Shown: piece by piece, positions 1,264 through 42,319 of the stretch
How positions within the stretch are numbered: position 1 is the first letter of the stretch
How the letters are laid out: the number at the start of each line of letters is the position of its first letter
DNA from: Escherichia phage vB_EcoS_fFiEco03
Sequence record: NC_073315.1
Direction: 5' to 3' (one strand)
Length of the DNA stretch: 43,947 nucleotides
The notes under the pieces: generated by a model
Told to the model about the DNA's origin: nothing
The model's database searches: none
Seen by the model: only the letters and a program-made list of their open reading frames with translations
Position numbers and translations under genes: made by a program

Positions 1264-2745
1264 ATGTTAACTATGAACGGTCAGAATCAGGGTGTTAAGA
1301 CAAAACACCGGGAATGGCTGCATCACTTTGATAAATGGCAGAAGGTGCGCCATGCGCTGGAAGGCGACCTTATCCGTTACCTGCGTAACGTCGGGAAGAA
1401 CGAGCCTGACCCGACTTACGCCGCCCAACGCCAGGAGGAATACGAGAACGGCGCTATCTGCTACAACTTCACCAAGCGCACCCTGTCGGGTATGGTCGGC
1501 TCAGTTATGAGAAAAGACCCTGAGCAGATTATTCCTCGTGAACTGGAGTATCTGTTACGCAATGCCGACGGTTCTGGTGTTGGCCTGTGGCAGCACGCGC
1601 AGGATACGCTGATGGAGATTGACTCAGTAGGCCGTGGTGGTTTGCTGGTTGACGCCCCGGAAACAGCCGCAGCAACGGCAGCCGAACAGAACGCCGGATT
1701 ATTAAACCCGGTCATCGCATTCTACACCGCAGAGAACATCATCAACTGGCGACTCACTCGCGTAGGCTCGGTTAACCGCGTCACGATGGTAGTGCTGCGC
1801 GAGGTATGGGAGTATTCAGAACCTGGTGCGGAGTTTGAAACCAAATTCGGCGAACAATACCGCGTTCTCGACTTGACTGATGGCCGCTACCGCCAGCGCA
1901 TATACCGTTTCGATGCCGAAGGTGGTGCGCAGGGTGATGTAAAAGAAATCTTCCCGGAACTGGGCGAACAGTTGCGCGGAAAAATCCCATTCACGTTTAT
2001 TGGTGCGAGTAATAACGACGCGACGGTTGATGACGCACCTTTGCTGCCGTTGGCAGAACTCAATATCGGACATTTCCGCAACAGCGCAGACAATGAGGAA
2101 TCTAGCTTCGTCGTAGGTCAGCCTACCCTGTTTATCGCCCCAGGCGAGAATATGAGCATGGAGCAGTGGAAAGAGGCCAACCCTCACGGCGTGCGCATGG
2201 GTTCGCGTTCAGGCCACAACATCGGCTACGGCGGCAATGCGTTTCTGGTTCAGGCGGGAGAGAACAACCTCGCCAAGCAGAACATGCTGGATAAAGAGAA
2301 TCAGGCCATTCAGATTGGTGCGCAGCTTATCACCCCGACGCAGCAAATCACCGCCGAATCCGCCCGCCTGCAACGTGGTGCTGACACGTCAGTTATGGCG
2401 ACAATCGCACGTAACGTAAGCATGGCGTATACCGATGCGTTGCGCTGGGTAGCGGCGATGCTAGGGTTGCGTGAAGGCACAGAGATTGAGTTCAAACTTA
2501 ACATGGAGTTCTTCCTGCAACCGATGACCGCTCAGGACCGCGCTCAGTGGATGGCGGACATTAATGCCGGTCTGCTGCCAGCGACCGCTTACTACGCCGC
2601 GTTGCGTAAAGCAGGGGTGACTGACTGGACCGACGAGGATATTCAGAACGCTATTGAGGACGCACCTCTGCCGTTAGGTGCTGTTACTCAGGTGGCAGGA
2701 GAGATTCCGCAGTCGGCGCAGCAACAAGATGTCACTCAGCAGTAA
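1264..2745 (+). CDS. Portal protein
   Basis: 493-aa ORF immediately downstream of terL with AGAGGA RBS about 7 nt upstream; size and position typical of a siphovirus portal. Confidence 0.8.
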   Translation: MLTMNGQNQGVKTKHREWLHHFDKWQKVRHALEGDLIRYLRNVGKNEPDPTYAAQRQEEYENGAICYNFTKRTLSGMVGSVMRKDPEQIIPRELEYLLRNADGSGVGLWQHAQDTLMEIDSVGRGGLLVDAPETAAATAAEQNAGLLNPVIAFYTAENIINWRLTRVGSVNRVTMVVLREVWEYSEPGAEFETKFGEQYRVLDLTDGRYRQRIYRFDAEGGAQGDVKEIFPELGEQLRGKIPFTFIGASNNDATVDDAPLLPLAELNIGHFRNSADNEESSFVVGQPTLFIAPGENMSMEQWKEANPHGVRMGSRSGHNIGYGGNAFLVQAGENNLAKQNMLDKENQAIQIGAQLITPTQQITAESARLQRGADTSVMATIARNVSMAYTDALRWVAAMLGLREGTEIEFKLNMEFFLQPMTAQDRAQWMADINAGLLPATAYYAALRKAGVTDWTDEDIQNAIEDAPLPLGAVTQVAGEIPQSAQQQDVTQQ

Positions 2746-2754
2746 GTTCACATA

Positions 2755-2777
2755 TAGCCCCGAAAGGGGCTTTCTTA
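2755..2777 (+). terminator. Weak intrinsic terminator or attenuator hairpin after portal
   Basis: AGCCCC-GAAA-GGGGCT hairpin followed by TTCTTAT. Confidence 0.35.
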
Positions 2778-2781
2778 TAGT

Positions 2782-3858
2782 ATGCTATTAACTTTAGCGC
2801 CACAGGGTTTATCTATGAGCTTACTTACATCTCTAATCAGCCACCAGATATGGCTGCAACGCACTGCATCCGGTGAGGTGAAAGACCTCGCGCCGTTCAT
2901 TAAGGAGATGCGGGACGAAATAAAACGGCAGGTGCTGTTATTCGGTGACGACGGGCGGAGCACTGCGCGACTGAATAAACTGTTACTCGACCTTGAAGAA
3001 GCACTGACGTGGCTTACAGGTGACTGGCAAACAAAGCTGACAGAAGACCTTAAGGAACTGGCCGCATATGAGGCTGAGTGGAACGTAAAAACACTGACCG
3101 CCAACGTTGACGCGGAATTTGTTACGCCTACCGCCGAACAGGTGTGGGCTGCTGCCGAGTTTCAGCCGCTGTCGTTAAGCGACAAGCCCGTCGATTTCAC
3201 TAAGCTGATGGCAGGCTGGGGTGAAACGGAGGCCGCGCGCCTCGTAACCGGCGTTAAGATGGGGTTTGTTCAGGGCCAAACCACACGGCAGATTGTTAAA
3301 AATGTCGTAGGCGCTGGTGGGCTGGCGGACATCTCTGAACGCAACGCGGCTACGGTAATCCGCACCGCGCTGTCTCACGTATCCAACGAAGCCCGCAACG
3401 AGACATACCGCCAGAACGACGACATCATCGAGAAATACGAGTGGGTGTCAACGCTGGACAGCCGCACCAGCACGATTTGCAGGGCCAGAGACGGAATGAC
3501 GTGGGAAATTGGTAAAGGGCCGATGCCACCCGCGCATCCTAATTGCCGAAGCACCACCGCGCCTGTAATCAGTTCGGAGTTCGACTTCCTCGATAAAGGC
3601 GCAAAACGCGCGGCTAAGGGTGCGGACGGCGGTACTCAGGTAAGTGCAGACACCACCTATTACGAGTTCCTTAAACAACAACCGGCGTGGTTTCAGGATG
3701 AAGCATTAGGGCCAGTTCGCGGTAAGATTTTCCGTAACAGCGGTATATCGCCGGAAGAGTTTCGCGTAATATCTGTAGATGGTTTCGGGAATCCGCTCAC
3801 GCTTAAGCAGATGGCGGAACTCGATAAACGTGTTGCTGATTATCTGAAAGGGGATTAA
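2782..3858 (+). CDS. Head morphogenesis protein (SPP1 gp7 / Mu F-like minor head protein)
   Basis: 358-aa ORF in the terL-portal-morphogenesis order. No clear SD at 2782, and an alternative ATG lies at 2815, so the start is uncertain. Confidence 0.7.
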   Translation: MLLTLAPQGLSMSLLTSLISHQIWLQRTASGEVKDLAPFIKEMRDEIKRQVLLFGDDGRSTARLNKLLLDLEEALTWLTGDWQTKLTEDLKELAAYEAEWNVKTLTANVDAEFVTPTAEQVWAAAEFQPLSLSDKPVDFTKLMAGWGETEAARLVTGVKMGFVQGQTTRQIVKNVVGAGGLADISERNAATVIRTALSHVSNEARNETYRQNDDIIEKYEWVSTLDSRTSTICRARDGMTWEIGKGPMPPAHPNCRSTTAPVISSEFDFLDKGAKRAAKGADGGTQVSADTTYYEFLKQQPAWFQDEALGPVRGKIFRNSGISPEEFRVISVDGFGNPLTLKQMAELDKRVADYLKGD

Positions 3859-5822: not shown

Positions 5823-6527
5823 ATGAATCGTTTTTTACGTTATCCGTTCCAGGAAGAAGCTGGGGCAGAAGATAAATCTGGCGGTGGCGACGCTCCAAAA
5901 ATGTTCACCGCTGAAGAAGTTCAGGCGCTGATTGAGAAAGAAGTTGCCGGACTTAAGGCCAATCAGGAAGCATTGCTGGCGGAGAAGAAAGAAGCTGCCC
6001 GTAAAGCAAAAGAGGCCGAAGAGGAACGTCAGCGCGCGCACCAGGAGGCGCTAAAAGCCGCCGGTAAGATGGACGAGTTCGAAAAGACGATTCGTAGCCA
6101 GTATGACCCGGTGTTAGCCGAGAAAGATGGTCGCATCTCCAAAATGGCAGAGCGCATCCTCGGCAGCGAACGTAAAGCGGTGTTAGGCTCTTTCGCAGGT
6201 GATTTCATCACACCGGAAGCAGTAGACATTCTTGCTCCGTTCGTTAAGACTGAGTTTGAAGGCGATGACGTGGTTACTAAGTTTGTTGGTGCAGACGGCA
6301 ACGTAATCACAACTGACCCGGAACAGTTCCGCAAGTACCTGCGCGAACACAAAGCGTTTTCGCATTTGATTAAAGCAAATGCAGCTTCCGGCGGCGGGGC
6401 TTCCGGTAGCAAAGGCGGCGGGGCCGCACCAGCGTTTAAAGACATGAGTGAAGCGGAGCGTATCGCTCTGTACGAATCGAACCCTGCCGAATTTGAACGG
6501 CAACTTAAAGCCCTGAGGAAAAAATAA
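5823..6527 (+). CDS. Scaffolding protein (putative)
   Basis: About 234 aa, highly charged and coiled-coil-rich (AEKKEAARKAKEAEEERQRAHQE), immediately upstream of and stop/start-overlapping the major capsid gene. Confidence 0.6.
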   Translation: MNRFLRYPFQEEAGAEDKSGGGDAPKMFTAEEVQALIEKEVAGLKANQEALLAEKKEAARKAKEAEEERQRAHQEALKAAGKMDEFEKTIRSQYDPVLAEKDGRISKMAERILGSERKAVLGSFAGDFITPEAVDILAPFVKTEFEGDDVVTKFVGADGNVITTDPEQFRKYLREHKAFSHLIKANAASGGGASGSKGGGAAPAFKDMSEAERIALYESNPAEFERQLKALRKK

Positions 6528-25084: not shown

Positions 25085-26505
25085 TTCTTACCTCGTCTCT
25101 TCATGTAATTAAGCAACTCTTCCTGGACCGATTTCTTCTCGTCTGTACGCGCGGCAACAACCTCATCCAGCGTGTCTTTAGCGACGATGTGGTACAGGAA
25201 CACCGGGCGCTCGTGGCCCGCCTGTTTCTGGCGGACTGGGCCTATGCGCTCAACAACCTGCAAATAGTGCTCAAGGTTCCAGCCTTGCGAGATGAACGCC
25301 AGATGATGACCCCCGTCCTGTAAATTCAAACCATGCCCGGCTGACGCAGGATGCACGCATAAAATCTCGATTTCCCCACGGTTCCACGCTTCCATCTGCT
25401 TGTTCCCCTTAGCGCCTTTGGCGAACGCCTGTGCCTGTGGGAATCGCTTAAGGATACGCTCCAGTTCGTGTTTAAACTGATAGGCTACCAGTAACGGTGC
25501 ACCCTGTAGCTCCTCAACAATGGACTCAAGCGCATCAAGTTTCGTGTCGTGCACTTTCTCCCAGTCTTTGGTTGCTTCTCCGTCCGGTCCCGATACATAC
25601 ACGGCACCAGATGCAATCTGCAAACACTTCGACGTCTTCGCCGCGGCGTTAGCAGCTTCAACTTCTCCGCTCTCCAGTTCCGCGAATAACTTCTCCTCCA
25701 TATCGATGTACGCCTGACGTGCTTTCTTCGGCAGGTCAATTTCAACCGGAACAATAATCGGCGCTTCACACCCGAACCACTCAGCGGCGTCAATCGTGAG
25801 ACTAATGTCCTTCATCTTCTGGTGAATCTCATTATCCGCCCCCGGGCGCGCATGATACTCTCGCGCCATCGCCGACTTACCTTTCTGGACAGAGTTAAAC
25901 CATCGGTCGGTGAATGCCGTGTATGAAGAACCGAGGCGCTCACCCGCGTCGATAAACCAGTTCTGGCCCCACAAGTCTTTTAGGCCGTTTGGTGACGGTG
26001 TGCCTGTAAGGTTAATGAAACGCTTAACCTTTCCGAACGCCACTTTGCTAAGCGCCTTTGCCCGCTTGCTACCACCTGAACGGCTGCGGAATGATTTTAG
26101 TTTCGTGCTTTCATCGGCGACAATAACCGTAAAAGGCCAGTCGTCTTTGCCGTAGTAGTCAATCAGCCACTCGATAACTTCGTAGTTGGTGCATACCACG
26201 TTAGCGTCCGACTCCAGCGCCGCGATGCGGCGCCTCTCGCTACCGGTCGCATCGACGACACTCAGACAAGGGAAACCCCACTTAGTTTGTTCTGCGGGCC
26301 ACGTACCGGATGCAACACGTAACGGGGCGAGGATTAACACGCGGTCCTCTTCCGTAAGCTGCCCGTTGCGGAACAGGCGGTTTAGAACCCACATTGTCGA
26401 CGAGGTCTTGCCGCCGCCCATACCGCACCAGATATTGCAACGTGGGTGCTGTAGCATAAACGACGTCATTATTTTCTGATATTCCCTGCGCCTAAACTTA
26501 CTCAT
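25081..26505 (-). CDS. Superfamily 2 (SNF2/DEAD-like) helicase
   Basis: Walker A GMGGGKTS, DExx-like VADESTK, and a helicase C-terminal-like region; 474 aa. Confidence 0.75.
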   Translation of the reverse strand: MSKFRRREYQKIMTSFMLQHPRCNIWCGMGGGKTSSTMWVLNRLFRNGQLTEEDRVLILAPLRVASGTWPAEQTKWGFPCLSVVDATGSERRRIAALESDANVVCTNYEVIEWLIDYYGKDDWPFTVIVADESTKLKSFRSRSGGSKRAKALSKVAFGKVKRFINLTGTPSPNGLKDLWGQNWFIDAGERLGSSYTAFTDRWFNSVQKGKSAMAREYHARPGADNEIHQKMKDISLTIDAAEWFGCEAPIIVPVEIDLPKKARQAYIDMEEKLFAELESGEVEAANAAAKTSKCLQIASGAVYVSGPDGEATKDWEKVHDTKLDALESIVEELQGAPLLVAYQFKHELERILKRFPQAQAFAKGAKGNKQMEAWNRGEIEILCVHPASAGHGLNLQDGGHHLAFISQGWNLEHYLQVVERIGPVRQKQAGHERPVFLYHIVAKDTLDEVVAARTDEKKSVQEELLNYMKRRGKK

Positions 26506-26999
26506 GCCTTGAACTCCCCGAAGTATATTTCCGCGGCTCTTTGGTATACGCGCGACGCTTCTTCTATAGTATCAAAATAGCCAAGGTGGATGTATTTGTT
26601 ATTGACGCCTATTCTGGCGCGCCACCTGCCAGAGGGTATTTGGTAAACCCCTATCGCGCCGCTAGTGTTATGTGATGAGCAGTCTCGGTTCTGAATCTGC
26701 TGGCTCCTGGTTGCTGGCCTTATATTATTTATGGCGTTATTAGCCCTGTTACGGTCTTTATGGTCAAGCTCACCATTATGATATTCTCCGTAGACGAAAG
26801 CCCATGCCAGATGGTGGGCTTTTATTCTTACACCGGAGACTGTAATAACTATGTATCCTTTGTCGTTTGGCCCTCCGGCTACCTCCCCCGCATTTCTCCC
26901 TTTTATGCTTACTTTTCGTGTAAATATACCGGTTTCGGGGTCATAGTTAAGAAGACGTTTCGCCTCCTCAATATCAGGCCTTCTTGTTAATTTGTTCAT
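26502..26999 (-). CDS. HNH homing endonuclease with C-terminal AP2 domain
   Basis: HNH_3-like GYIVITVSGVRIKAHHLAWAFVYGEYHNGELDHKDRNRANNAINNIR followed by AP2-like GAIGVYQIPSGRWRARIGVNNKYIHLGYFDTIEEASRVY; AT-richer than flanks. Confidence 0.8.
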   Translation of the reverse strand: MNKLTRRPDIEEAKRLLNYDPETGIFTRKVSIKGRNAGEVAGGPNDKGYIVITVSGVRIKAHHLAWAFVYGEYHNGELDHKDRNRANNAINNIRPATRSQQIQNRDCSSHNTSGAIGVYQIPSGRWRARIGVNNKYIHLGYFDTIEEASRVYQRAAEIYFGEFKA

Positions 27000-27217: not shown

Positions 27218-27502
27218 CTAACTATAATAGTTCGCTATTAGGTCGTCAACCTGTTTGAACGACCCGACGACAAAAACATTCGCGCCGCGTTTGCGCATAC
27301 GCTCATGCTCACGTAACTGGTGTGGGTCTGGCTTCGTGTTTTCGTCTTTCTTAACCTCGACGAACCAGACGATACCGTTGGGGAGAATTACCAGCAGGTC
27401 GGGGGCGCCGGAACGCCCCTCGTAGGAAAGTTTACGAACGAGGCCGCCGATAGCCTCGAATCGCTCTTTTGCGTATTTCTGGATGCGCCCCTCTTTAGTC
27501 AT
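27218..27502 (-). CDS. VRR-NUC domain nuclease (putative)
   Basis: 94 aa from ATG 27502 (ATGA-coupled); pattern G.PDLLVILPNGIVWFVEVKK...Q consistent with a VRR-NUC PD-(D/E)xK core (recalled). Confidence 0.55.
   Translation of the reverse strand: MTKEGRIQKYAKERFEAIGGLVRKLSYEGRSGAPDLLVILPNGIVWFVEVKKDENTKPDPHQLREHERMRKRGANVFVVGSFKQVDDLIANYYS
27221..27249 (-). promoter_or_regulatory. Sigma70-like promoter, class II (TTGACG-N17-TATAGT), embedded in the 3' end of the VRR-NUC gene
   Basis: On the - strand: TTGACG, spacer ACCTAATAGCGAACTAT, TATAGT. Same design as the promoters at 30954 and 33569. Confidence 0.55.
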
Positions 27503-27651
27503 GAGCGCAGAACCCAAGTTATAAACGCCCCGCCTAAAATGGCAACACCAACAAACTTAAAGAACAGGCCATAACAGAACATCGCGGCTATTCCTGCGCC
27601 GAGTAGCAGTGCGAGCATGGTTACTATCGTCCAAAATACAAACATTGTCAT
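27499..27651 (-). CDS. Micro-ORF: 50-aa two-TM membrane peptide
   Basis: Hand-translated MTMFVFWTIVTMLALLLGAGIAAMFCYGLFFKFVGVAILGGAFITWVLRS; ATGA overlaps at both ends. Confidence 0.4.
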   Translation of the reverse strand: MTMFVFWTIVTMLALLLGAGIAAMFCYGLFFKFVGVAILGGAFITWVLRS

Positions 27652-27737
27652 AATACGCACCCCTCACGTTTCGTATGCTCAATCCCGCAGCGCGGACAGA
27701 TTCGGCAGTCTTCTTCGTAGAACCAGTAAATTTTCAT
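27648..27737 (-). CDS. Micro-ORF: 29-aa Cys-rich (zinc-ribbon-like) peptide
   Basis: MKIYWFYEEDCRICPRCGIEHTKREGCVL; ATGA overlaps at both ends. Confidence 0.3.
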   Translation of the reverse strand: MKIYWFYEEDCRICPRCGIEHTKREGCVL

Positions 27738-27865
27738 TCCAGCACCCACAGATAAATTGCGATGAACATACCCAGTACGGCGGTCATCATGTCGTATTGA
27801 CCCTCGTGGTAGTAGACACCGGCTGCGAATCCCGCCAGTACTGCAATAATCAGTTTACTTGGCAT
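27734..27865 (-). CDS. Micro-ORF: 43-aa membrane peptide
   Basis: MPSKLIIAVLAGFAAGVYYHEGQYDMMTAVLGMFIAIYLWVLE; strong CAGGAG RBS; start overlaps the 3' end of the DNA polymerase gene. Confidence 0.4.
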   Translation of the reverse strand: MPSKLIIAVLAGFAAGVYYHEGQYDMMTAVLGMFIAIYLWVLE

Positions 27866-30056
27866 AACGTTTTAACTCCTGACCTTCCGCTACAAGAGGG
27901 AACCCCTCCGCCCACTCTGGCAACGCACACATTAATTTTTCCAGTTCAGCCACCGTGTAATCCGGCGTATCTGGAGTTTCACATACCAGTTCATCGTGTA
28001 CCGAAAGCACGATGGGATACCCGCCACCCTCAACATTAATCATCGCATATGCGAGTAAATCACGGCACAGCGCCTGAACAATGTTTTCGCAGGCTTTGCC
28101 GCCGTGTGTGTACAGGGTAGTCCATTGGCGGGTTAACTGGTTTTCACCTTGGTACTTGATTCGCACATTCGTGTTTACCCGTCCGTCTTCGTCTGTTTCT
28201 TTTGTCACGCTAACGCCGATTCCTGGATACGAGAGGATACGGCCCGACGGCAACTCCATACACAACCACCAACCGGGAACCTTCCTACCGGATGAATCGG
28301 TTTCTACTGTTCTCCAGATTCGGATAGCGCGCTCGCCATTCTTGCGCAGATGCGCCCCCGCCCAAAATTCACGACCCGGATTTCTTACAGCGGCTAAAAT
28401 ACCGTCTTTGAGGTCGCGCCAGAACGCTACTGTTTCCGGGTGTGACTCGCGCCACATACGCTTGATTGCGTCGCAGGTGCGCCACACTTTCTTGTCCAGA
28501 ATATACGATGGTCGGTCATCCTTCTCACCTGGATGCGGGGGGCGCTTGGCTTCCTGGATGCGCGCCCATTCATATCCTCTCGCGGTGGCCGACCAGATGT
28601 GGTCCGGGAATGTACCGTCCATTGTTTTAGCCATCTCAATAAGGTCGAGGCCTAAGTTTTTGGCGAACGTAACGAATGCTCCGACGCCTCCCTCGTAGCC
28701 GAGGCCCAGTTCGCATGCTTTGCCTATCTGTCTGATTTCCTTAAAGTTTTTCTTAATATCGTCGGGGTCCATGCCAAACATCTTACCTGCAGTTACGCAA
28801 TAAATATCCAACCCGGCGCGGAAAGTATCAAGCGCGGTTTCTTCGCCTGCCAACCACGCAAGCCCACGACCCTCAACGTTAGAGTAATCGGCAACAACAA
28901 ACTTATGCCCCACTTCCGGTATGATGCAGCTACGTACCGTCGATGCCGTTAGCTTGGCTACATCAAAACGGCGGTGTGCCCGGCCTTTAAGTAACGCTGA
29001 AATGCCTTTATCCAGTTCATCATCGTGATAGTACCCGCGCGCCAGGTTCTGTGGTTGGAAGCCTTTACCCGCCCACCGCAAAGTGCGTTTTGCCCCACCG
29101 TACTGTAAACAACCCCGGCGGCGGTCGTCCGATGAGCGGCCCAACAGCAGTGGGTTATATTTCGTTGACGCGGTGGACGCGGCCCCGAGGCGCATTTCGA
29201 TAATTGTGCGTGCGTCGTCCGGTAAATCATCGTCCGCCAGCAGGTCGTTAAGCGTCGACTTCTGTGCGTTGTGTATGCGGTGTGCAGGGGCGAGTTCACG
29301 AAGAATCGGCAGAAAGTCCTTACCAGTAAGCGAGCCGCCGTATTTGCGTTGGGCTTCCTCCTGTAACTGCGCTTTGTGTTTCTCCACGGCTTCAATAGCG
29401 GCTTCCGCCAGTGCAACGTCAACCTTAAACCCGCGGTCGTTGATTAACTGGTCCAGTTCCAGTACACGGTCCTCGAACTCGGAGTTACCCCAACGCGGCA
29501 GCTTATGGAAGACTTCACGCATCGCAGTGATGTCGCTCACGGCGTACTTGATGAACAGCGCCCACTCATCAGGGTGTGTTTCGGCGGTGTAGCGTCTGAT
29601 TTTGTAGTTCTTCGGCGTCGGCTTAGAGAAACGCTGAATCAGCGCCTTGCCGCGTTTATCTTTTGCATTGTCAGCAGACACGCCAAGCACTTCACACAGC
29701 GCATCAAGTGAACCCGGCAGCGCGTGACGAAACGCCCAAATCATCGTATCAATGGTGTTGCTTACCGGAATATCAAAGTCCCAACAGTGCTTCATGATGA
29801 GCCTGTCGAACATTGATCCGTTGTGCCATACCATCTTAATGCGACTGTTTGGCTTAACCAGGCGGCGTAACGCACGATGCAAATCACCCGGCATGTCGCT
29901 GCCGTCGGTGCAATCCCATACCCGCACAGGCTCGTCGTCAAAAGCATATGTGCAGATAAGCACTTCGGTAGTCGGGTGTTCGGCGTAAGCGTAGGAGCCG
30001 ACTTTCTTTAAATCTGCTTCGGAGAATGTTTCAAAGTCCAGGTATAAGTAGCTCAT
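27855..30056 (-). CDS. DNA polymerase, family A (with 3'-5' exonuclease domain)
   Basis: Exo motifs YLYLDFETFS and HNGSMFD, polymerase motif SVHDELV; start placed at ATG 30056 (AAGGA RBS, ATGA-coupled to the upstream micro-ORF) rather than the ORF-track 30110. Confidence 0.85.
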   Translation of the reverse strand: MSYLYLDFETFSEADLKKVGSYAYAEHPTTEVLICTYAFDDEPVRVWDCTDGSDMPGDLHRALRRLVKPNSRIKMVWHNGSMFDRLIMKHCWDFDIPVSNTIDTMIWAFRHALPGSLDALCEVLGVSADNAKDKRGKALIQRFSKPTPKNYKIRRYTAETHPDEWALFIKYAVSDITAMREVFHKLPRWGNSEFEDRVLELDQLINDRGFKVDVALAEAAIEAVEKHKAQLQEEAQRKYGGSLTGKDFLPILRELAPAHRIHNAQKSTLNDLLADDDLPDDARTIIEMRLGAASTASTKYNPLLLGRSSDDRRRGCLQYGGAKRTLRWAGKGFQPQNLARGYYHDDELDKGISALLKGRAHRRFDVAKLTASTVRSCIIPEVGHKFVVADYSNVEGRGLAWLAGEETALDTFRAGLDIYCVTAGKMFGMDPDDIKKNFKEIRQIGKACELGLGYEGGVGAFVTFAKNLGLDLIEMAKTMDGTFPDHIWSATARGYEWARIQEAKRPPHPGEKDDRPSYILDKKVWRTCDAIKRMWRESHPETVAFWRDLKDGILAAVRNPGREFWAGAHLRKNGERAIRIWRTVETDSSGRKVPGWWLCMELPSGRILSYPGIGVSVTKETDEDGRVNTNVRIKYQGENQLTRQWTTLYTHGGKACENIVQALCRDLLAYAMINVEGGGYPIVLSVHDELVCETPDTPDYTVAELEKLMCALPEWAEGFPLVAEGQELKRYAK

Positions 30057-30208
30057 TTCTTTTTCCTTAAATCCAGTGCCTTCGTTTCGCTGAGTCTTAT
30101 TTTCATACAATCACGGCAAATCCACACATGCCTGTACCCGGCGCGGTACTCATCCGCGTACCACGGAAGCGGTTTCATATATCGGTATACGTGCTTACAG
30201 AAAAACAT
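30053..30208 (-). CDS. Micro-ORF: 51-aa Cys/His-containing (zinc-ribbon-like) protein coupled to the polymerase start
   Basis: MFFCKHVYRYMKPLPWYADEYRAGYRHVWICRDCMKIRLSETKALDLRKKK; its stop overlaps the polymerase ATG. Confidence 0.4.
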   Translation of the reverse strand: MFFCKHVYRYMKPLPWYADEYRAGYRHVWICRDCMKIRLSETKALDLRKKK

Positions 30209-30953: not shown

Positions 30954-30982
30954 ACTATAATAGCTAACTATTCAGGTGTCAA
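30954..30982 (-). promoter_or_regulatory. Sigma70-like promoter, class II (TTGACA-N17-TATAGT)
   Basis: On the - strand: TTGACA, spacer CCTGAATAGTTAGCTAT, TATAGT; upstream of the SSB-like gene. Confidence 0.6.
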
Positions 30983-40999: not shown

Positions 41000-41465
41000 T
41001 GGCTTGCATTTCACCGCCGCGTTCGAGGGATTCCGCGGAACTGCGTATCGTGCTACGCCGAACGAGAAGTACCTGACGATAGGCTACGGCCATTACGGGC
41101 CGGATGTAACCCCAGGTAAGACCATCACACCGGGGCAAGGCCTCCTGCTACTTAATCGTGATATGGCTAAGGCCGTAGCTGCGGTTGACGCCGCAGCGCA
41201 CCATTCGCTTACACAGGCACAGTTCGACGCAGTATGCGACCTGGTGTACAACGCAGGTGCTGGCGTTATTGCGGCTACTACAGGAACCGGTAAGGCTCTG
41301 CGTTCTGGTGATATTGCGACGCTACGGGCTAAACTGGCGCTGTTTATCAACCAGAACGGCAAACCGCTACTCGGCTTGCGTCGCCGTACTGCGGGCCGTC
41401 TGGCCCTGTTCGACGGCAAACCGTGGCAGGAGGCAGAGGCTATCGGGCGCGCGGTGAAAGGTTGA
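40962..41465 (+). CDS. Endolysin (lysozyme, GH24-like)
   Basis: Start at ATG 40962; catalytic region FEGFRGTAYRATPNEKYLTIGYGH matches the phage lysozyme E...D/C...T(I)G(Y)GH pattern. Confidence 0.8.
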   Translation: MGDISVSRNISDNGLHFTAAFEGFRGTAYRATPNEKYLTIGYGHYGPDVTPGKTITPGQGLLLLNRDMAKAVAAVDAAAHHSLTQAQFDAVCDLVYNAGAGVIAATTGTGKALRSGDIATLRAKLALFINQNGKPLLGLRRRTAGRLALFDGKPWQEAEAIGRAVKG

Positions 41466-41529
41466 CACCTGAGACTAATCCGACGATACTTAAATCACCT
41501 CCTGTTCCATCCCTCTGCTCTCCAGTTTT

Positions 41530-41563
41530 ATCCCGGCCCTGACCCAGCCGGGATTTTTTTTTA
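41530..41563 (+). terminator. Strong intrinsic terminator after the endolysin gene
   Basis: ATCCCGGC-N9-GCCGGGAT followed by nine Ts. Confidence 0.8.
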
Positions 41564-41584
41564 TCTATTTTCTGCAATGACTAG

Positions 41585-41613
41585 TTGACTATTAACATCG
41601 ACCCTATTATATT
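41585..41613 (+). promoter_or_regulatory. Sigma70-like promoter (TTGACT-N17-TATATT)
   Basis: TTGACT, spacer ATTAACATCGACCCTAT, TATATT; conserved AACGAGAGGAG leader. Confidence 0.55.
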
Positions 41614-41645
41614 TACTCCATCGACAACGAGAGGAGAGGCAGAGA

Positions 41646-41834
41646 ATGGTGACTAAGATTAAGCATACCGATAATTGGGGCGATTTCCTGGAGATATATA
41701 AGTGCAGGGACGGGTCATTACTTATAACTTGTACCGACGGTGCTATCGACGAATCAGCTAATGTTAATATGAGCCTGGATGATTTTATTATCATTGTTGG
41801 GCAAGTGGCGGCTTTTTACGGAGATGATAAATGA
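41646..41834 (+). CDS. Hypothetical protein, 62 aa
   Basis: ORF with GAGGAG RBS. Confidence 0.5.
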   Translation: MVTKIKHTDNWGDFLEIYKCRDGSLLITCTDGAIDESANVNMSLDDFIIIVGQVAAFYGDDK

Positions 41835-41980
41835 AAATCACAGATATCGAAGCATTCGAAGACGCGCAACTGATGGCACGTATCGCTGTCAGTAACCTGA
41901 GCACTACTGTACCAGCGGACGCGTTCTGGTTCGCCGCGATGCAGACACTGAAAGCAGCTTATGCAGGAGAGAAGAAATGA
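41831..41980 (+). CDS. Micro-ORF: 49-aa protein
   Basis: ATGA-coupled; MKITDIEAFEDAQLMARIAVSNLSTTVPADAFWFAAMQTLKAAYAGEKK. Confidence 0.4.
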   Translation: MKITDIEAFEDAQLMARIAVSNLSTTVPADAFWFAAMQTLKAAYAGEKK

Positions 41981-42138
41981 GCGAACAAGGTCAAGTAAGC
42001 CAACCATTACGAGTAGGCCGTAAAGTCAGTCACACACCGTTCCCGACACGCGAGGAACTGATGAAACGTAACAGTTTCCCCGGGCCGGACAAGAACAAGT
42101 ATCTCAATCGCATGTGGGGAGAGCGTAAAAATGACTGA
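41977..42138 (+). CDS. Micro-ORF: 53-aa protein
   Basis: ATGA-coupled; MSEQGQVSQPLRVGRKVSHTPFPTREELMKRNSFPGPDKNKYLNRMWGERKND. Confidence 0.4.
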   Translation: MSEQGQVSQPLRVGRKVSHTPFPTREELMKRNSFPGPDKNKYLNRMWGERKND

Positions 42139-42319
42139 CCGTGAATATGAGAAAGCGTGTGTAGAAGCGGCGCTCCGCCCCACCGACAACGGCGAATCGG
42201 AGATTGCTTGCCTGGACACTATGATTCAGTACTACGCAAATAAGGTTGACCGCCTGATGGAGCAACGCCGTGAACTGATTAACCGCTTCAACCTGAACAA
42301 AGGTGACACCAATGCCTAA
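42131..42319 (+). CDS. Hypothetical protein, 62 aa
   Basis: ORF overlapping the upstream gene by 8 nt. Confidence 0.45.
   Translation: MTDREYEKACVEAALRPTDNGESEIACLDTMIQYYANKVDRLMEQRRELINRFNLNKGDTNA

Follow-up and report, generated by a model that had tools for sequence, protein, structure and literature searches.

Three very short open reading frames, o1, o2 and o3, lie on the minus strand of Escherichia phage vB_EcoS_fFiEco03 (NC_073315.1; the whole 43,947-nt stretch analysed is called the window) between the gene for a family-A DNA polymerase and that for a VRR-NUC nuclease. Are these frames genes, do they act as a unit, and what might their products do? A first-pass annotation had described them as a coupled trio of membrane, Cys-rich and membrane peptides, uncharacterised and possibly active in replisome anchoring, host takeover or exclusion. 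Three minus-strand frames of the sizes it gave (43, 29 and 50 codons) do lie between the two enzyme genes (Table 1). The region is 99.9% identical to that of Escherichia phage vB_EcoS_fFiEco02 (Kagunavirus, NC_073316), which has the same three CDS, gp42, gp41 and gp40, each annotated as 'hypothetical protein'. The products also matched PHROG families: o1 matched phrog_10404 (E=1.4e-29, residues 1-43 of 43), o2 phrog_38225 (E=2.5e-22, residues 1-28, profile positions 5-32 of 36) and o3 phrog_14925 (E=1.4e-33, residues 1-50 of 50). These are full-length matches to entries that hold the same sequences and that name the genes without assigning a function. Thus, the trio is not new but already catalogued, as GenBank CDS and as PHROG families of 'unknown function'. 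Searches of o1, o2 and o3 against Pfam, NCBIfam and PDB sequences returned nothing significant, we found no paper addressing any of them, and the sole Kagunavirus RNA-seq study, with 57 genes annotated, did not resolve the micro-ORFs; functionally, they are indeed uncharacterised. The explanation we favour, to which as a whole we give an even chance, is that they are three separate small genes, with o2 as a core metal-binding partner and o1 and o3 as accessory membrane peptides. Our results show that the genes are coding, how their coupling signals are laid out, how cassettes are exchanged, where the genes occur and how hydrophobic the products are; metal binding, membrane insertion, partners and biological role are deduced.

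Coding status and packing of o1, o2 and o3

Conservation of the three frames in relatives had been proposed as a check on their reality, and it did not refute them. The frames are uninterrupted in all relatives carrying the respective gene, and in-frame dN/dS was 0.215 for o1, 0.126 for o2 and 0.180 for o3; the flanking enzymes gave 0.147 (VRR-NUC) and 0.098 (polymerase C-terminus). In the other two forward frames dN/dS was 0.8-2.2, and stops interrupted 22-47 of 24-47 sequences. On the opposite strand, an antisense 140-aa ORF (27617-28039, plus strand) was intact in 1 of 18 relatives only and is not conserved. Purifying selection thus operates in the proposed frame alone, and o1, o2 and o3 are genuine coding genes, beyond chance ORFs.

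Table 1 Features of the polymerase-to-VRR-NUC region and its upstream context, in window positions
Feature	Positions	Strand	Product	Details
VRR-NUC nuclease (gp39)	27218-27502	minus	94 aa	ATG at 27502
o3 (fFiEco02 gp40)	27499-27651	minus	50 aa	reads from 27651 to 27499; MTMFVFWTIVTMLALLLGAGIAAMFCYGLFFKFVGVAILGGAFITWVLRS
o2 (fFiEco02 gp41)	27648-27737	minus	29 aa	reads from 27737 to 27648; MKIYWFYEEDCRICPRCGIEHTKREGCVL
GAGGGG Shine-Dalgarno, gene after o2	27660-27665	minus		in o2 Arg-Glu-Gly codons, 8 nt before o3 ATG
o1 (fFiEco02 gp42)	27734-27865	minus	43 aa	reads from 27865 to 27734; MPSKLIIAVLAGFAAGVYYHEGQYDMMTAVLGMFIAIYLWVLE
Family-A DNA polymerase, 3'-5' exonuclease domain	27855-30056	minus	733 aa	from ATG at 30056; stop 27855
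CAGGAG Shine-Dalgarno, first slot gene	27876-27881	minus		in polymerase Gln-Glu codons, 10 nt before o1 ATG
gp44-like mini-protein	30053-30208	minus	51 aa	Cys/His, CxH...HxxCxxC; operon context
Sigma-70-like promoter candidate, TTGACA-17-TATAGT	30954-30982	minus		11/12 consensus match, upstream of DUF2815 gene

The flanking genes are readily placed. The polymerase counterpart in GenBank is gp43 (DnaQ-like exonuclease plus DNA_pol_A), and the nuclease matched phrog_93 (E=5e-34); its Pfam VRR_NUC score of 21.7 bits is slightly below the 23.8-bit cut-off. The VRR-NUC genes of relatives carry a Holliday-junction resolvase annotation. Upstream of the polymerase, the stop of the gp44-like gene and the polymerase ATG share 4 nt (ATGA). 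The gene, whose product has a weak phrog_7696 match, occurs in just 6 of the 37 close relatives and is accessory; for the same reason, we rejected the notion of a polymerase invariably flanked by a pair of Cys mini-proteins.

Along the series polymerase, o1, o2, o3 and VRR-NUC, the junctions are -11, -4, -4 and -4 nt. The ATGA overlaps reported earlier are therefore present at o1/o2, o2/o3 and o3/VRR-NUC, while the polymerase and o1 share an 11-nt overlap, ATGCCAAGTAA, instead. By this overlap anatomy, the three would be translationally coupled genes of one operon. In fFiEco02, whose genome is near-identical, overlaps of 4 nt account for 21 of the 63 junctions between same-strand genes, and they are therefore the usual packing for this phage rather than something special to the trio. 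In all 53 relatives compared, junctions of -11, -4 or -1 nt occur wherever the genes abut, and the polymerase junction is -11 in 51 of them.

Two ribosome-binding sites lie inside upstream coding sequence. The CAGGAG site described before o1 is present, its GGAG/GAGG core is conserved in at least 90% of 46 loci, and in phages without o1 the same polymerase-embedded site and ATG are used by o2. The GAGGGG site within o2 is likewise conserved in at least 90%, and genomes without o3 have the VRR-NUC ATG essentially where the o3 ATG would be. Part of the conservation of the o2 Arg-Glu-Gly residues may stem from this embedded site and not from the protein. The sigma-70-like promoter candidate, a strong match to the consensus, is the likely start of a transcript with gp44, the polymerase, o1, o2, o3 and VRR-NUC; we found no minus-strand terminator-like site between the polymerase stop and the VRR-NUC start, and no Rfam family anywhere in the window. 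The phage is of the Kagunavirus type (Guernseyvirinae), and stop/start overlaps pack the genes into its replication/recombination operon; the anatomy suggests that a single polycistronic mRNA carries them. Ribosomes would enter o1 via the GGAG site within the end of the polymerase gene and then proceed by termination-reinitiation at the ATGA overlaps from o1 to o2, o3 and VRR-NUC, aided by GAGGGG within o2.

Such an arrangement raises the question of whether the peptides matter at all, or whether the frames are translated just as spacers in the coupling, adjusting how much VRR-NUC is made, or are annotation noise. All three ORFs are very short, with homologues confined to the group, downstream ribosome sites are embedded in upstream ORFs with coupling kept in all architectures, and the dosage of a nuclease such as VRR-NUC may need limiting. 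However, the amino-acid sequences are under purifying selection no weaker than that on the two enzymes alongside, and specific residues of all three peptides are invariant. Furthermore, phages lacking o1 or o3 couple polymerase, o2 and VRR-NUC directly, and spacers are therefore not needed. We regard this explanation as very improbable.

Exchange of small genes at fixed junctions

We scanned 50,697 phage records and found o2 in 443, o1 in 222 and o3 in 119. The 443 records with o2 are drawn from ~464 related phage records, or ~95% of the subfamily. All 116 non-Salmonella records bearing o2 (Escherichia, Kagunavirus, Raoultella, Shigella, Klebsiella) also carry o1, compared to merely 106 of 324 Salmonella-phage records. 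The presence of o1 was independent of that of o3 (Fisher p=0.43), and both polymerase C-terminus lineages include forms with and without o3. Sixteen architectures were found among the 53 relatives, including o1 plus o2, o2 plus o3, and o2 alone. The third slot is filled in some relatives by a 63-64-aa soluble protein (phrog_25645) or by single-TM peptides of 23-25 aa, and HNH_3/AP2 endonucleases are inserted at three positions of the polymerase-to-VRR-NUC stretch across the 53 relatives. The only constant occupant of the slot is o2.

These observations speak against the suggestion that the trio acts together: the three genes differ in their record counts, o1 and o3 are distributed independently, and the slots can be filled by other genes. 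Among the relatives, o1 and o3 have been gained and lost independently. In more distant relatives (L054/L055), nothing comparable separates the polymerase and VRR-NUC genes, and o2 is therefore not generally required by either enzyme.

The pattern resembles moron-like cassettes and homing-endonuclease hotspots, in which small genes come and go at fixed junctions while the flanking lineages are mixed. Classical morons, in contrast, have their own promoter and terminator, whereas cassettes of the o1/o3 type have neither and reuse the overlapping start/stop signals of the operon. The polymerase-to-VRR-NUC stretch behaves as a set of plug-in slots: cassettes are inserted, lost or swapped with such precision that every new arrangement takes over the existing start codons and ribosome sites.

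The o2 product as a candidate metal binder

The o2 product contains Cys residues at C11, C14, C17 and C27, which together with H21 are its candidate metal ligands. They include a CPxCG knuckle (here CPRCG) preceded by an aromatic, strand-like segment. Across 29 variants, all five ligands were retained in 20, four of five in 9, and fewer in none; C14 is invariant, and C11 is replaced by R or F in 5 of the 29. The CxxCxxC...C cluster noted in the first-pass annotation is thus correctly positioned in this phage, but its first Cys is not conserved. These features suggest that o2 encodes a soluble Cys-rich mini-protein and candidate metal binder.

In o2, the 14-residue span C14-C27 encloses a His and is CCHC-knuckle-like, although the spacing is C-x2-C-x3-H-x5-C rather than the C-x2-C-x4-H-x4-C of zf-CCHC, and o2 gave no match at E<=1 to Pfam zf-CCHC PF00098 (20.8-bit gathering cut-off). 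The CPxCG knuckle also occurs in COX5B, RpoM, Nop10 and S27ae, to which o2 showed no significant profile match, and the sub-threshold PDB matches of o2 were mostly zinc ribbons. A single-sequence AlphaFold model of the 33-aa GTG-extended form had a pLDDT of 60, was without secondary structure and is uninformative. An exhaustive HMMER search of 1.84e9 cluster representatives found no o2 outside the phage group, returning two true clusters and one spurious repeat protein. Most likely, o2 folds around one metal ion, putatively zinc, held by the CPxCG knuckle and two of the three further ligands.

An alternative is that the CxxCxxC...C cysteines hold an iron-sulfur cluster in place of zinc, or give o2 a redox or regulatory function. 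In its spacing, CxxCxxC is like the first part of the 4Fe-4S ferredoxin motif, the same gene block encodes a Cas4-like nuclease, and many DNA-processing enzymes carry iron-sulfur clusters. The complete ferredoxin-type motif is C-x2-C-x2-C-x3-C-P, however, and the fourth Cys of o2 lies 9 residues past the third, not 3, and is followed by V or I instead of P. Moreover, the loss of C11 to Arg or Phe in the variants described above leaves three Cys and one His, CPxCG is a classic zinc-knuckle signature, and the weak PDB matches are zinc proteins. We consider iron-sulfur or redox chemistry improbable for o2.

The most likely role of o2 is that of a small accessory subunit of a neighbouring DNA enzyme, VRR-NUC or the polymerase. 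The proposed link to VRR-NUC rests on adjacency and on non-homologous precedents, and the count of small TM/Cys-motif ORFs beside VRR-NUC, given below, lent it no significant support. In one unrelated phage (L062), a zf-CCHC peptide (23.2 bits) is coupled upstream of VRR-NUC; in another (L069), a zinc ribbon is fused to the VRR-NUC C-terminus, and this tail matches phrog_25658, a profile of just 58 positions. A broader but improbable idea is that small zinc modules accompany phage VRR-NUC resolvases time and again and have so far escaped notice. Four arrangements fit it, three with the module coupled upstream (Guernseyvirinae, L062 and L070) and one with it fused (L069).

Predicted membrane peptides o1 and o3

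Both hydropathy and predicted insertion energies give o1 and o3 a membrane character, and the two had been predicted to be two-helix membrane peptides. For o1 this is plausible: two hydrophobic segments (~5-19 and 26-42, each of 15-17 residues) surround a polar loop, so that the sequence is compatible with a hairpin. The first segment holds a conserved AxxxGxxxG, the loop Y-x-H-E-G-Q-Y is nearly invariant, residues G12, F13, A14, Y18, Y24 and W40 are invariant, and the C-terminus reads ...LWVLE. In contrast, o3 is hydrophobic end to end, without a clear polar break, and AlphaFold (28 sequences) modelled it as one continuous helix, residues 2-49, with a pLDDT of 89.8. The helix is modelled with confidence but does not decide between a hairpin and a single span, and a two-helix form is only a possibility for o3. 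The o3 motif G18-A-G-x-A-A (G18-A-G, A22-A23) is invariant, G35 and G40 are conserved, natural variants lacking 5 residues at positions 25-29 occur, and the C-terminus reads ...WVLRS. In a word-indexed search of 5.8e9 proteins, all relatives of o1 had at least 77% identity and all relatives of o3 at least 73%. Paralogy of the two was rejected by profile-profile comparison (hhalign probability 0.2%). We infer that both are accessory membrane peptides, unrelated to each other and probably of the inner membrane, with small-xxx-small packing motifs, and that they most likely oligomerise or dock on a host membrane protein. Because no member of the genus that infects E. coli lacks o1, it is possibly more than accessory within Kagunavirus.

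Pore formation offers one way to explain such peptides. On this view o1 and o3, though encoded away from the lysis cassette, would time lysis (holin, pinholin or antiholin-like). Both are short and very hydrophobic, and their glycine-zipper-like motifs are typical of proteins that form membrane pores. Yet fFiEco02 already has an annotated holin-like pair and endolysin at 41262-42304 on the other strand, with a spanin at 5940. Furthermore, o1 and o3 have just one or two charged residues and no holin-typical charged C-terminal tail, share their operon with replication genes rather than a lysis cassette, and are dispensable in many relatives. A part in lysis timing is highly unlikely.

The surroundings of the genes prompt a different idea, built on the replisome anchoring raised in the first-pass annotation, in which o1 and/or o3 would anchor o2, and thereby VRR-NUC or the polymerase, and so organise replication or junction resolution at the inner membrane. 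The replication operon contains the three genes, and translational coupling ties them to those of the polymerase and VRR-NUC. In phage phi29, the membrane proteins p16.7 and p1 are membrane-anchored replication organisers, and their genes, as those of o1 and o3, are found among genes for replication. In addition, several distant VRR-NUC phages (L080/L081, L067, L074, L064) encode one small adjoining protein in which a Cys-rich segment and a TM helix are joined, the expected look of o2 fused to a TM peptide. However, p16.7 consists of a TM anchor, a coiled coil and a DNA-binding domain, whereas o1 and o3 have only hydrophobic helices, which are optional in the lineage; nearly all of each peptide is hydrophobic, and no soluble domain is left for a partner. 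About half of the o2 records are without o1 and about three quarters without o3, the two being independently distributed. The distant Cys-rich plus TM proteins show no detectable homology to o1, o2 or o3. In distant phages, small TM/Cys-motif ORFs were found coupled upstream of VRR-NUC at 2 of 16 junctions, and such ORFs at 1 of 61 control junctions, a difference that was not significant (p=0.11) in a test that used crude longest-ORF gene calling and recovered the VRR-NUC ORF in 25 of 43 loci only. A second viral scan, made with the VRR-NUC alignment, covered one peptide pattern and added ~15 loci. Replisome anchoring is disfavoured by the missing soluble domain and by the dispensability of o1 and o3 in many relatives; we hold it to be improbable, and a place for o1 or o3 in the replication machinery to be unlikely.

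The same material can be arranged around o2, as a metal-binding partner of VRR-NUC (or the polymerase) with o1 and o3 as its detachable membrane tethers, the whole being a split counterpart of the Cys-rich plus TM protein seen in L080/L081, L067 and L074. We view this version with considerable doubt. If true, it would mean that Guernseyvirinae process replication/recombination intermediates at the inner membrane; the zinc modules beside VRR-NUC considered above are the broader form of the idea.

Within the reading that we favour, of o1 and o3 as accessory membrane peptides separate from o2, host takeover or exclusion is a possible role. T4 Imm, Sp and HK97 gp15 are membrane proteins that their phages make early and that prevent superinfection or alter the host envelope. 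Like them, o1 and o3 are small, helical and predicted to be inner-membrane peptides, and their genes lie away from the lysis cassette and are dispensable and patchily distributed. At about half the size of T4 Imm, which has 83 aa, they are without an extramembrane part, and in comparisons with exclusion-protein families neither gave a Pfam match at E<=1 or a non-self PHROG match below E=0.03. The role of o1 and o3 would most likely be host-specific, dispensable and early, in exclusion, host takeover or interference with membrane defence. All non-Salmonella phages, mainly phages of E. coli, have o1, as do a third of the Salmonella phages, and o1 is therefore a candidate host-specific factor, a question for which existing collections (BASEL Bas70-76) are suited.

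For the most part, these results are a clarification: the three are catalogued hypothetical genes, packed as are one third of the genes of this phage. Among them, o2 stands out as a strongly selected 29-codon gene in ~95% of a therapeutically relevant subfamily (Jerseyvirus, Kagunavirus); it is unannotated in many deposited genomes and offers a cheap, well-defined target for knockout. The polymerase-to-nuclease stretch, in turn, is an example of natural cassette exchange that preserves translational coupling, and it marks safe insertion points for phage engineering.

Gene layout and coding capacity

Reading of the minus strand places the three micro-ORFs, o1, o2 and o3, in that order between the family-A DNA polymerase gene and the VRR-NUC gene. 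What the first-pass annotation had observed was confirmed with minor corrections: the ORFs do have 43, 29 and 50 codons, and a CAGGAG ribosome site precedes the first. ATGA overlaps, proposed for every neighbour, occur at the o1/o2, o2/o3 and o3/VRR-NUC junctions, but the polymerase and o1 overlap by 11 nt (ATGCCAAGTAA). A second good ribosome site lies inside o2. No minus-strand terminator-like site was found between the polymerase stop and the VRR-NUC start. A promoter feature is annotated somewhere under the matched region of the relative fBC-Eco01. In the genome of the near-identical phage vB_EcoS_fFiEco02, 4-nt overlaps occur at 21 of 63 same-strand junctions and overlaps of any kind at 31/63. 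ATGA-type coupling is therefore nothing special for such a genome; the notable point is how faithfully coupling survives while slot content changes.

Codon alignments were drawn from 79 VRR-NUC-anchored viral metagenome loci for the comparison of synonymous with nonsynonymous changes that the first-pass annotation had proposed. In-frame dN/dS was 0.215 in o1, 0.126 in o2 and 0.180 in o3 (42, 47 and 24 unique sequences, respectively), with 0.147 for VRR-NUC and 0.098 for the polymerase C-terminus; the two other forward frames gave 0.8–2.2 and contained stops in essentially every sequence. The frames are thus conserved in relatives, and all three ORFs are real coding genes. That they are coupling spacers with irrelevant products, an idea on which both the persistent coupling and these ratios bear, is highly improbable. 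A 140-aa antisense ORF was rejected as spurious because, of 18 relatives, only one keeps it intact. The window contains no Rfam families.

An 851-bp stretch is 99.9% identical to fFiEco02 (Kagunavirus, Guernseyvirinae) and gave megablast matches to 436 phage records. Elsewhere the window has an extra HNH_3/AP2 endonuclease gene and a different tailspike, and is therefore a mosaic close relative of fFiEco02 and not the same isolate. The ORFs are already annotated in fFiEco02 and relatives as hypothetical proteins (gp42, gp41 and gp40, respectively) and belong to catalogued PHROG families of unknown function (phrog_10404, phrog_38225 and phrog_14925), in keeping with the earlier description of them as uncharacterised. 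They represent no departure from known kinds of phage genes. No paper addressing them was found in the literature; the sole Kagunavirus time-course RNA-seq study, with 57 annotated genes, saw transcription of the family-A polymerase gene and did not resolve the micro-ORFs (PMC12645636). Annotation pipelines often overlook o2, a conserved gene of 29 codons: in many deposited Jerseyvirus and Kagunavirus genomes its frame carries no feature, and in some records it lies under a polymerase or HNH annotation.

Features of the window and of VRR-NUC-anchored metagenome loci (L-numbers; coordinates local to each locus)
Feature	Coordinates	Strand	Remarks
Promoter-like site, strong	30982-30954		upstream of DUF2815 gene
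gp44 homologue (fFiEco02)	30053..30208	minus	Cys/His mini-protein, 51 aa; C4, H6 ... H27, C30, C33
Antisense ORF	27617..28039	plus	140 aa; overlies o1, o2, polymerase 3' end
CAGGAG ribosome site	27881-27876	minus	10 nt before o1 ATG
o1	27865->27734	minus	43 aa
Family-A DNA polymerase	end at 27855	minus	sequence reading
o2	27737->27648	minus	29 aa
GAGGGG ribosome site	27665-27660	minus	inside o2, 8 nt before o3 ATG
o3	27651->27499	minus	50 aa
VRR-NUC nuclease	start at 27502	minus	sequence reading
Promoter-like site	27221..27249	minus	TTGACG-17-TATAGT, 10/12; inside VRR-NUC 3' end, just upstream of gp38 homologue
HNH_3 + AP2 homing-endonuclease gene	26502..26999	minus	between gp38 homologue and SNF2-type helicase
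phrog_25645 protein	L017 2310..2504; L018 2161..2355; L010 2164..2355		63-64 aa
Single-TM peptides replacing o3	L012 2424..2501; L057 2424..2501; L016 2430..2501		23-25 aa
L062 peptide	2334..2483		Pfam zf-CCHC threshold passed
'CNCNQGRxCP' Cys-rich family	L080 2296..2505; L081 552..761; L067 2018..2263		C-terminal TM helix
L074 TM protein	2304..2504		Cys-rich tail; beside VRR-NUC
L069 VRR-NUC	2498..2908		137 aa; C-terminal CPECG...CNDC zinc ribbon
HExxH ORFs	L053 2167..2508; L056 2278..2511		HEAVH or HECYH; coupled upstream of VRR-NUC

Predicted products

The o2 peptide is soluble and charged, and the CxxCxxC...C cluster described earlier is present as C11, C14, C17 and C27, together with H21; C14-P-R-C17-G is a classic zinc-knuckle signature. 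Among 29 variants, 20 retain all five candidate ligands and nine retain four, with none below four; C11 is replaced by R or F five times, while losses of C17, H21 or C27 affect one or two variants apiece. This pattern fits a candidate four-ligand metal site with one spare, the variants being too few and too related for a statistical test. Profile and PDB searches gave nothing significant, the weak PDB matches being mostly zinc ribbons, and the AlphaFold single-sequence model was uninformative. A search at the 50%-cluster level, covering 1.84 billion proteins, found no o2 relatives beyond this group of phages. By analogy, o2 may work like zinc-knuckle or zinc-ribbon families, membership of which is not demonstrable. 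An Fe-S or redox role could draw on the same cysteines, but beside the knuckle signature and ribbon matches we consider it unlikely. A 4-nt overlap joins the stop of the gp44 homologue to the polymerase ATG, and two putative metal-binding peptides therefore flank the polymerase in this phage; of 37 close relatives, only 6 carry this homologue.

Both o1 and o3 had been described as two-helix membrane peptides. In o1, two hydrophobic segments, at about residues 5–19 (A8xxxG12xxxG16) and 26–42, flank a polar loop, Y18-x-H-E-G-Q-Y24, that is its best-conserved part. It is plausibly a hairpin, whose termini would both lie on the side opposite the loop. In o3, residues 3 to 48 are hydrophobic, G18-A-G-x-A-A is invariant, G35 and G40 are conserved and a single Lys, Lys32, is variable; AlphaFold with 28 sequences gave one confident helix (residues 2–49, pLDDT 89.8), and the two-helix description is therefore not established. 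No kinship of o1 and o3 was detectable (hhalign probability 0.2%), and among 5.8 billion proteins neither has relatives below 73% identity. Their likeness to the small early membrane proteins of phages is one of kind alone. Apart from the holin, gp16, o1 and o3 are the only small TM genes among the 38 fFiEco02 genes of 100 aa or less. Such peptides might be lysis proteins, but the annotated holin-like pair, endolysin and spanin sit in another module, and we give this reading very little credence.

Exchange of cassettes within the operon

Gene order between polymerase and VRR-NUC was compared in 53 close relatives, which revealed 16 architectures, including pol-o1-o2-o3-vrr (17 loci), pol-o1-o2-vrr (13), pol-o2-vrr (5) and pol-o2-o3-vrr (2). 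Some relatives carry, between o2 and o3 or VRR-NUC, a soluble phrog_25645 protein that contains a CxGC-H motif, weakly matches an A2L zinc ribbon and is coupled by 4-nt overlaps; in others, single-TM peptides (MTMLTTIMIIVAVFLGVAVLSKVTD and MITIIAVLVALLLGAAIFSRIIG) substitute for o3. The MTMLTTIMIIVAVFLGVAVLSKVTD peptide resembles a shortened N-terminal helix of o3. A tblastn search of 50,697 phage records found 443 with o2, 222 with o1 and 119 with o3; all of these are Guernseyvirinae-type. The presence of o1 accompanies o2 in 116/116 non-Salmonella records but in only 106/324 from Salmonella phages, and is independent of o3 (Fisher p=0.43). The trio is thus not a unit; the first interpretation is supported in part, in that the genes are real and uncharacterised. 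A membrane-tethered replication complex, which the two predicted membrane peptides beside the polymerase might bring to mind, is improbable given this independence.

Where o1 is missing, o2 starts MLSKLII...: the start codon, the ribosome site and the seven opening residues are those of o1, and the body of o2 follows from an ATT microhomology onwards. Where o3 is missing, the VRR-NUC ATG takes the place of the o3 ATG behind the same GAGGGG. These junctions indicate that o1 and o3 losses and gains are precise cassette exchanges inside the operon. Both o3-containing and o3-lacking forms occur in each of two polymerase C-terminus lineages (138 aa, L004-L057; about 75–80% versus 96–99% aa identity to the window), and this mixing implies recombination within or beside the polymerase gene. 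Rare single-contig frame fusions in metagenome assemblies, of o2 with o3 (C27 lost) and of the o1 N-terminus with o2 (P0074, P0092, P0144, P0145) are probably indels or assembly errors, not natural fusions.

The operon is a homing hotspot. Some relatives carry HNH_3(/AP2) endonuclease genes between the polymerase and o1 (L034) or between o2 and VRR-NUC (L035/L036), fFiEco02 lacks the HNH_3 + AP2 gene of the window, and L006 has an insert of 231 aa that is rich in Cys and matches nothing in Pfam. Repeated HNH insertion nearby is a plausible driver of local recombination.

Small proteins beside VRR-NUC and proposed roles

None of o1–o3 is detectable in distant VRR-NUC phages (37–56% identity). 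In some of them, the coupled ORF immediately before VRR-NUC encodes a small protein of zinc or membrane type, without homology to o2: the L062 peptide, a basic CxxC...H...C peptide (L070/L071), a 35-aa TM peptide (L066), or a Cys-rich segment and TM helix in one protein (L080/L081, L067, L074, L064). The L080, L081, L067 and L074 proteins match neither Pfam nor PHROGs; the L062 peptide alone has a match. In L069/L072 (also L134), a zinc ribbon, CPxCG...CxxC, is fused at the VRR-NUC C-terminus and matches phrog_25658, whose profile of only 58 positions suggests free-standing small members. L054/L055 have nothing between polymerase and VRR-NUC. These cases suggest, as a hypothesis, a recurrent link between VRR-NUC and small zinc modules; a controlled upstream count (2/16 versus 1/61, p=0.11, crude gene calling) was not significant. 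In mid-distance relatives L053 and L056, the coupled ORF has an HExxH motif, a hint of a small protein akin to metallopeptidases.

Taken together, o1–o3 are three coding genes of one operon, joined by overlaps with embedded ribosome sites, that behave as plug-in, plug-out cassettes. We hold the structural and evolutionary part of this explanation with high confidence, regard the functional assignments as tentative, and give the whole an even chance. Under these assignments, o2 would be a metal-stabilised mini-protein in service of the adjacent DNA enzymes, and o1 and o3 would be accessory peptides of the inner membrane, independent of each other, that form oligomers or attach to a component of the host membrane. 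Their purpose may be host-specific and dispensable, for example in exclusion, takeover or defence interference.
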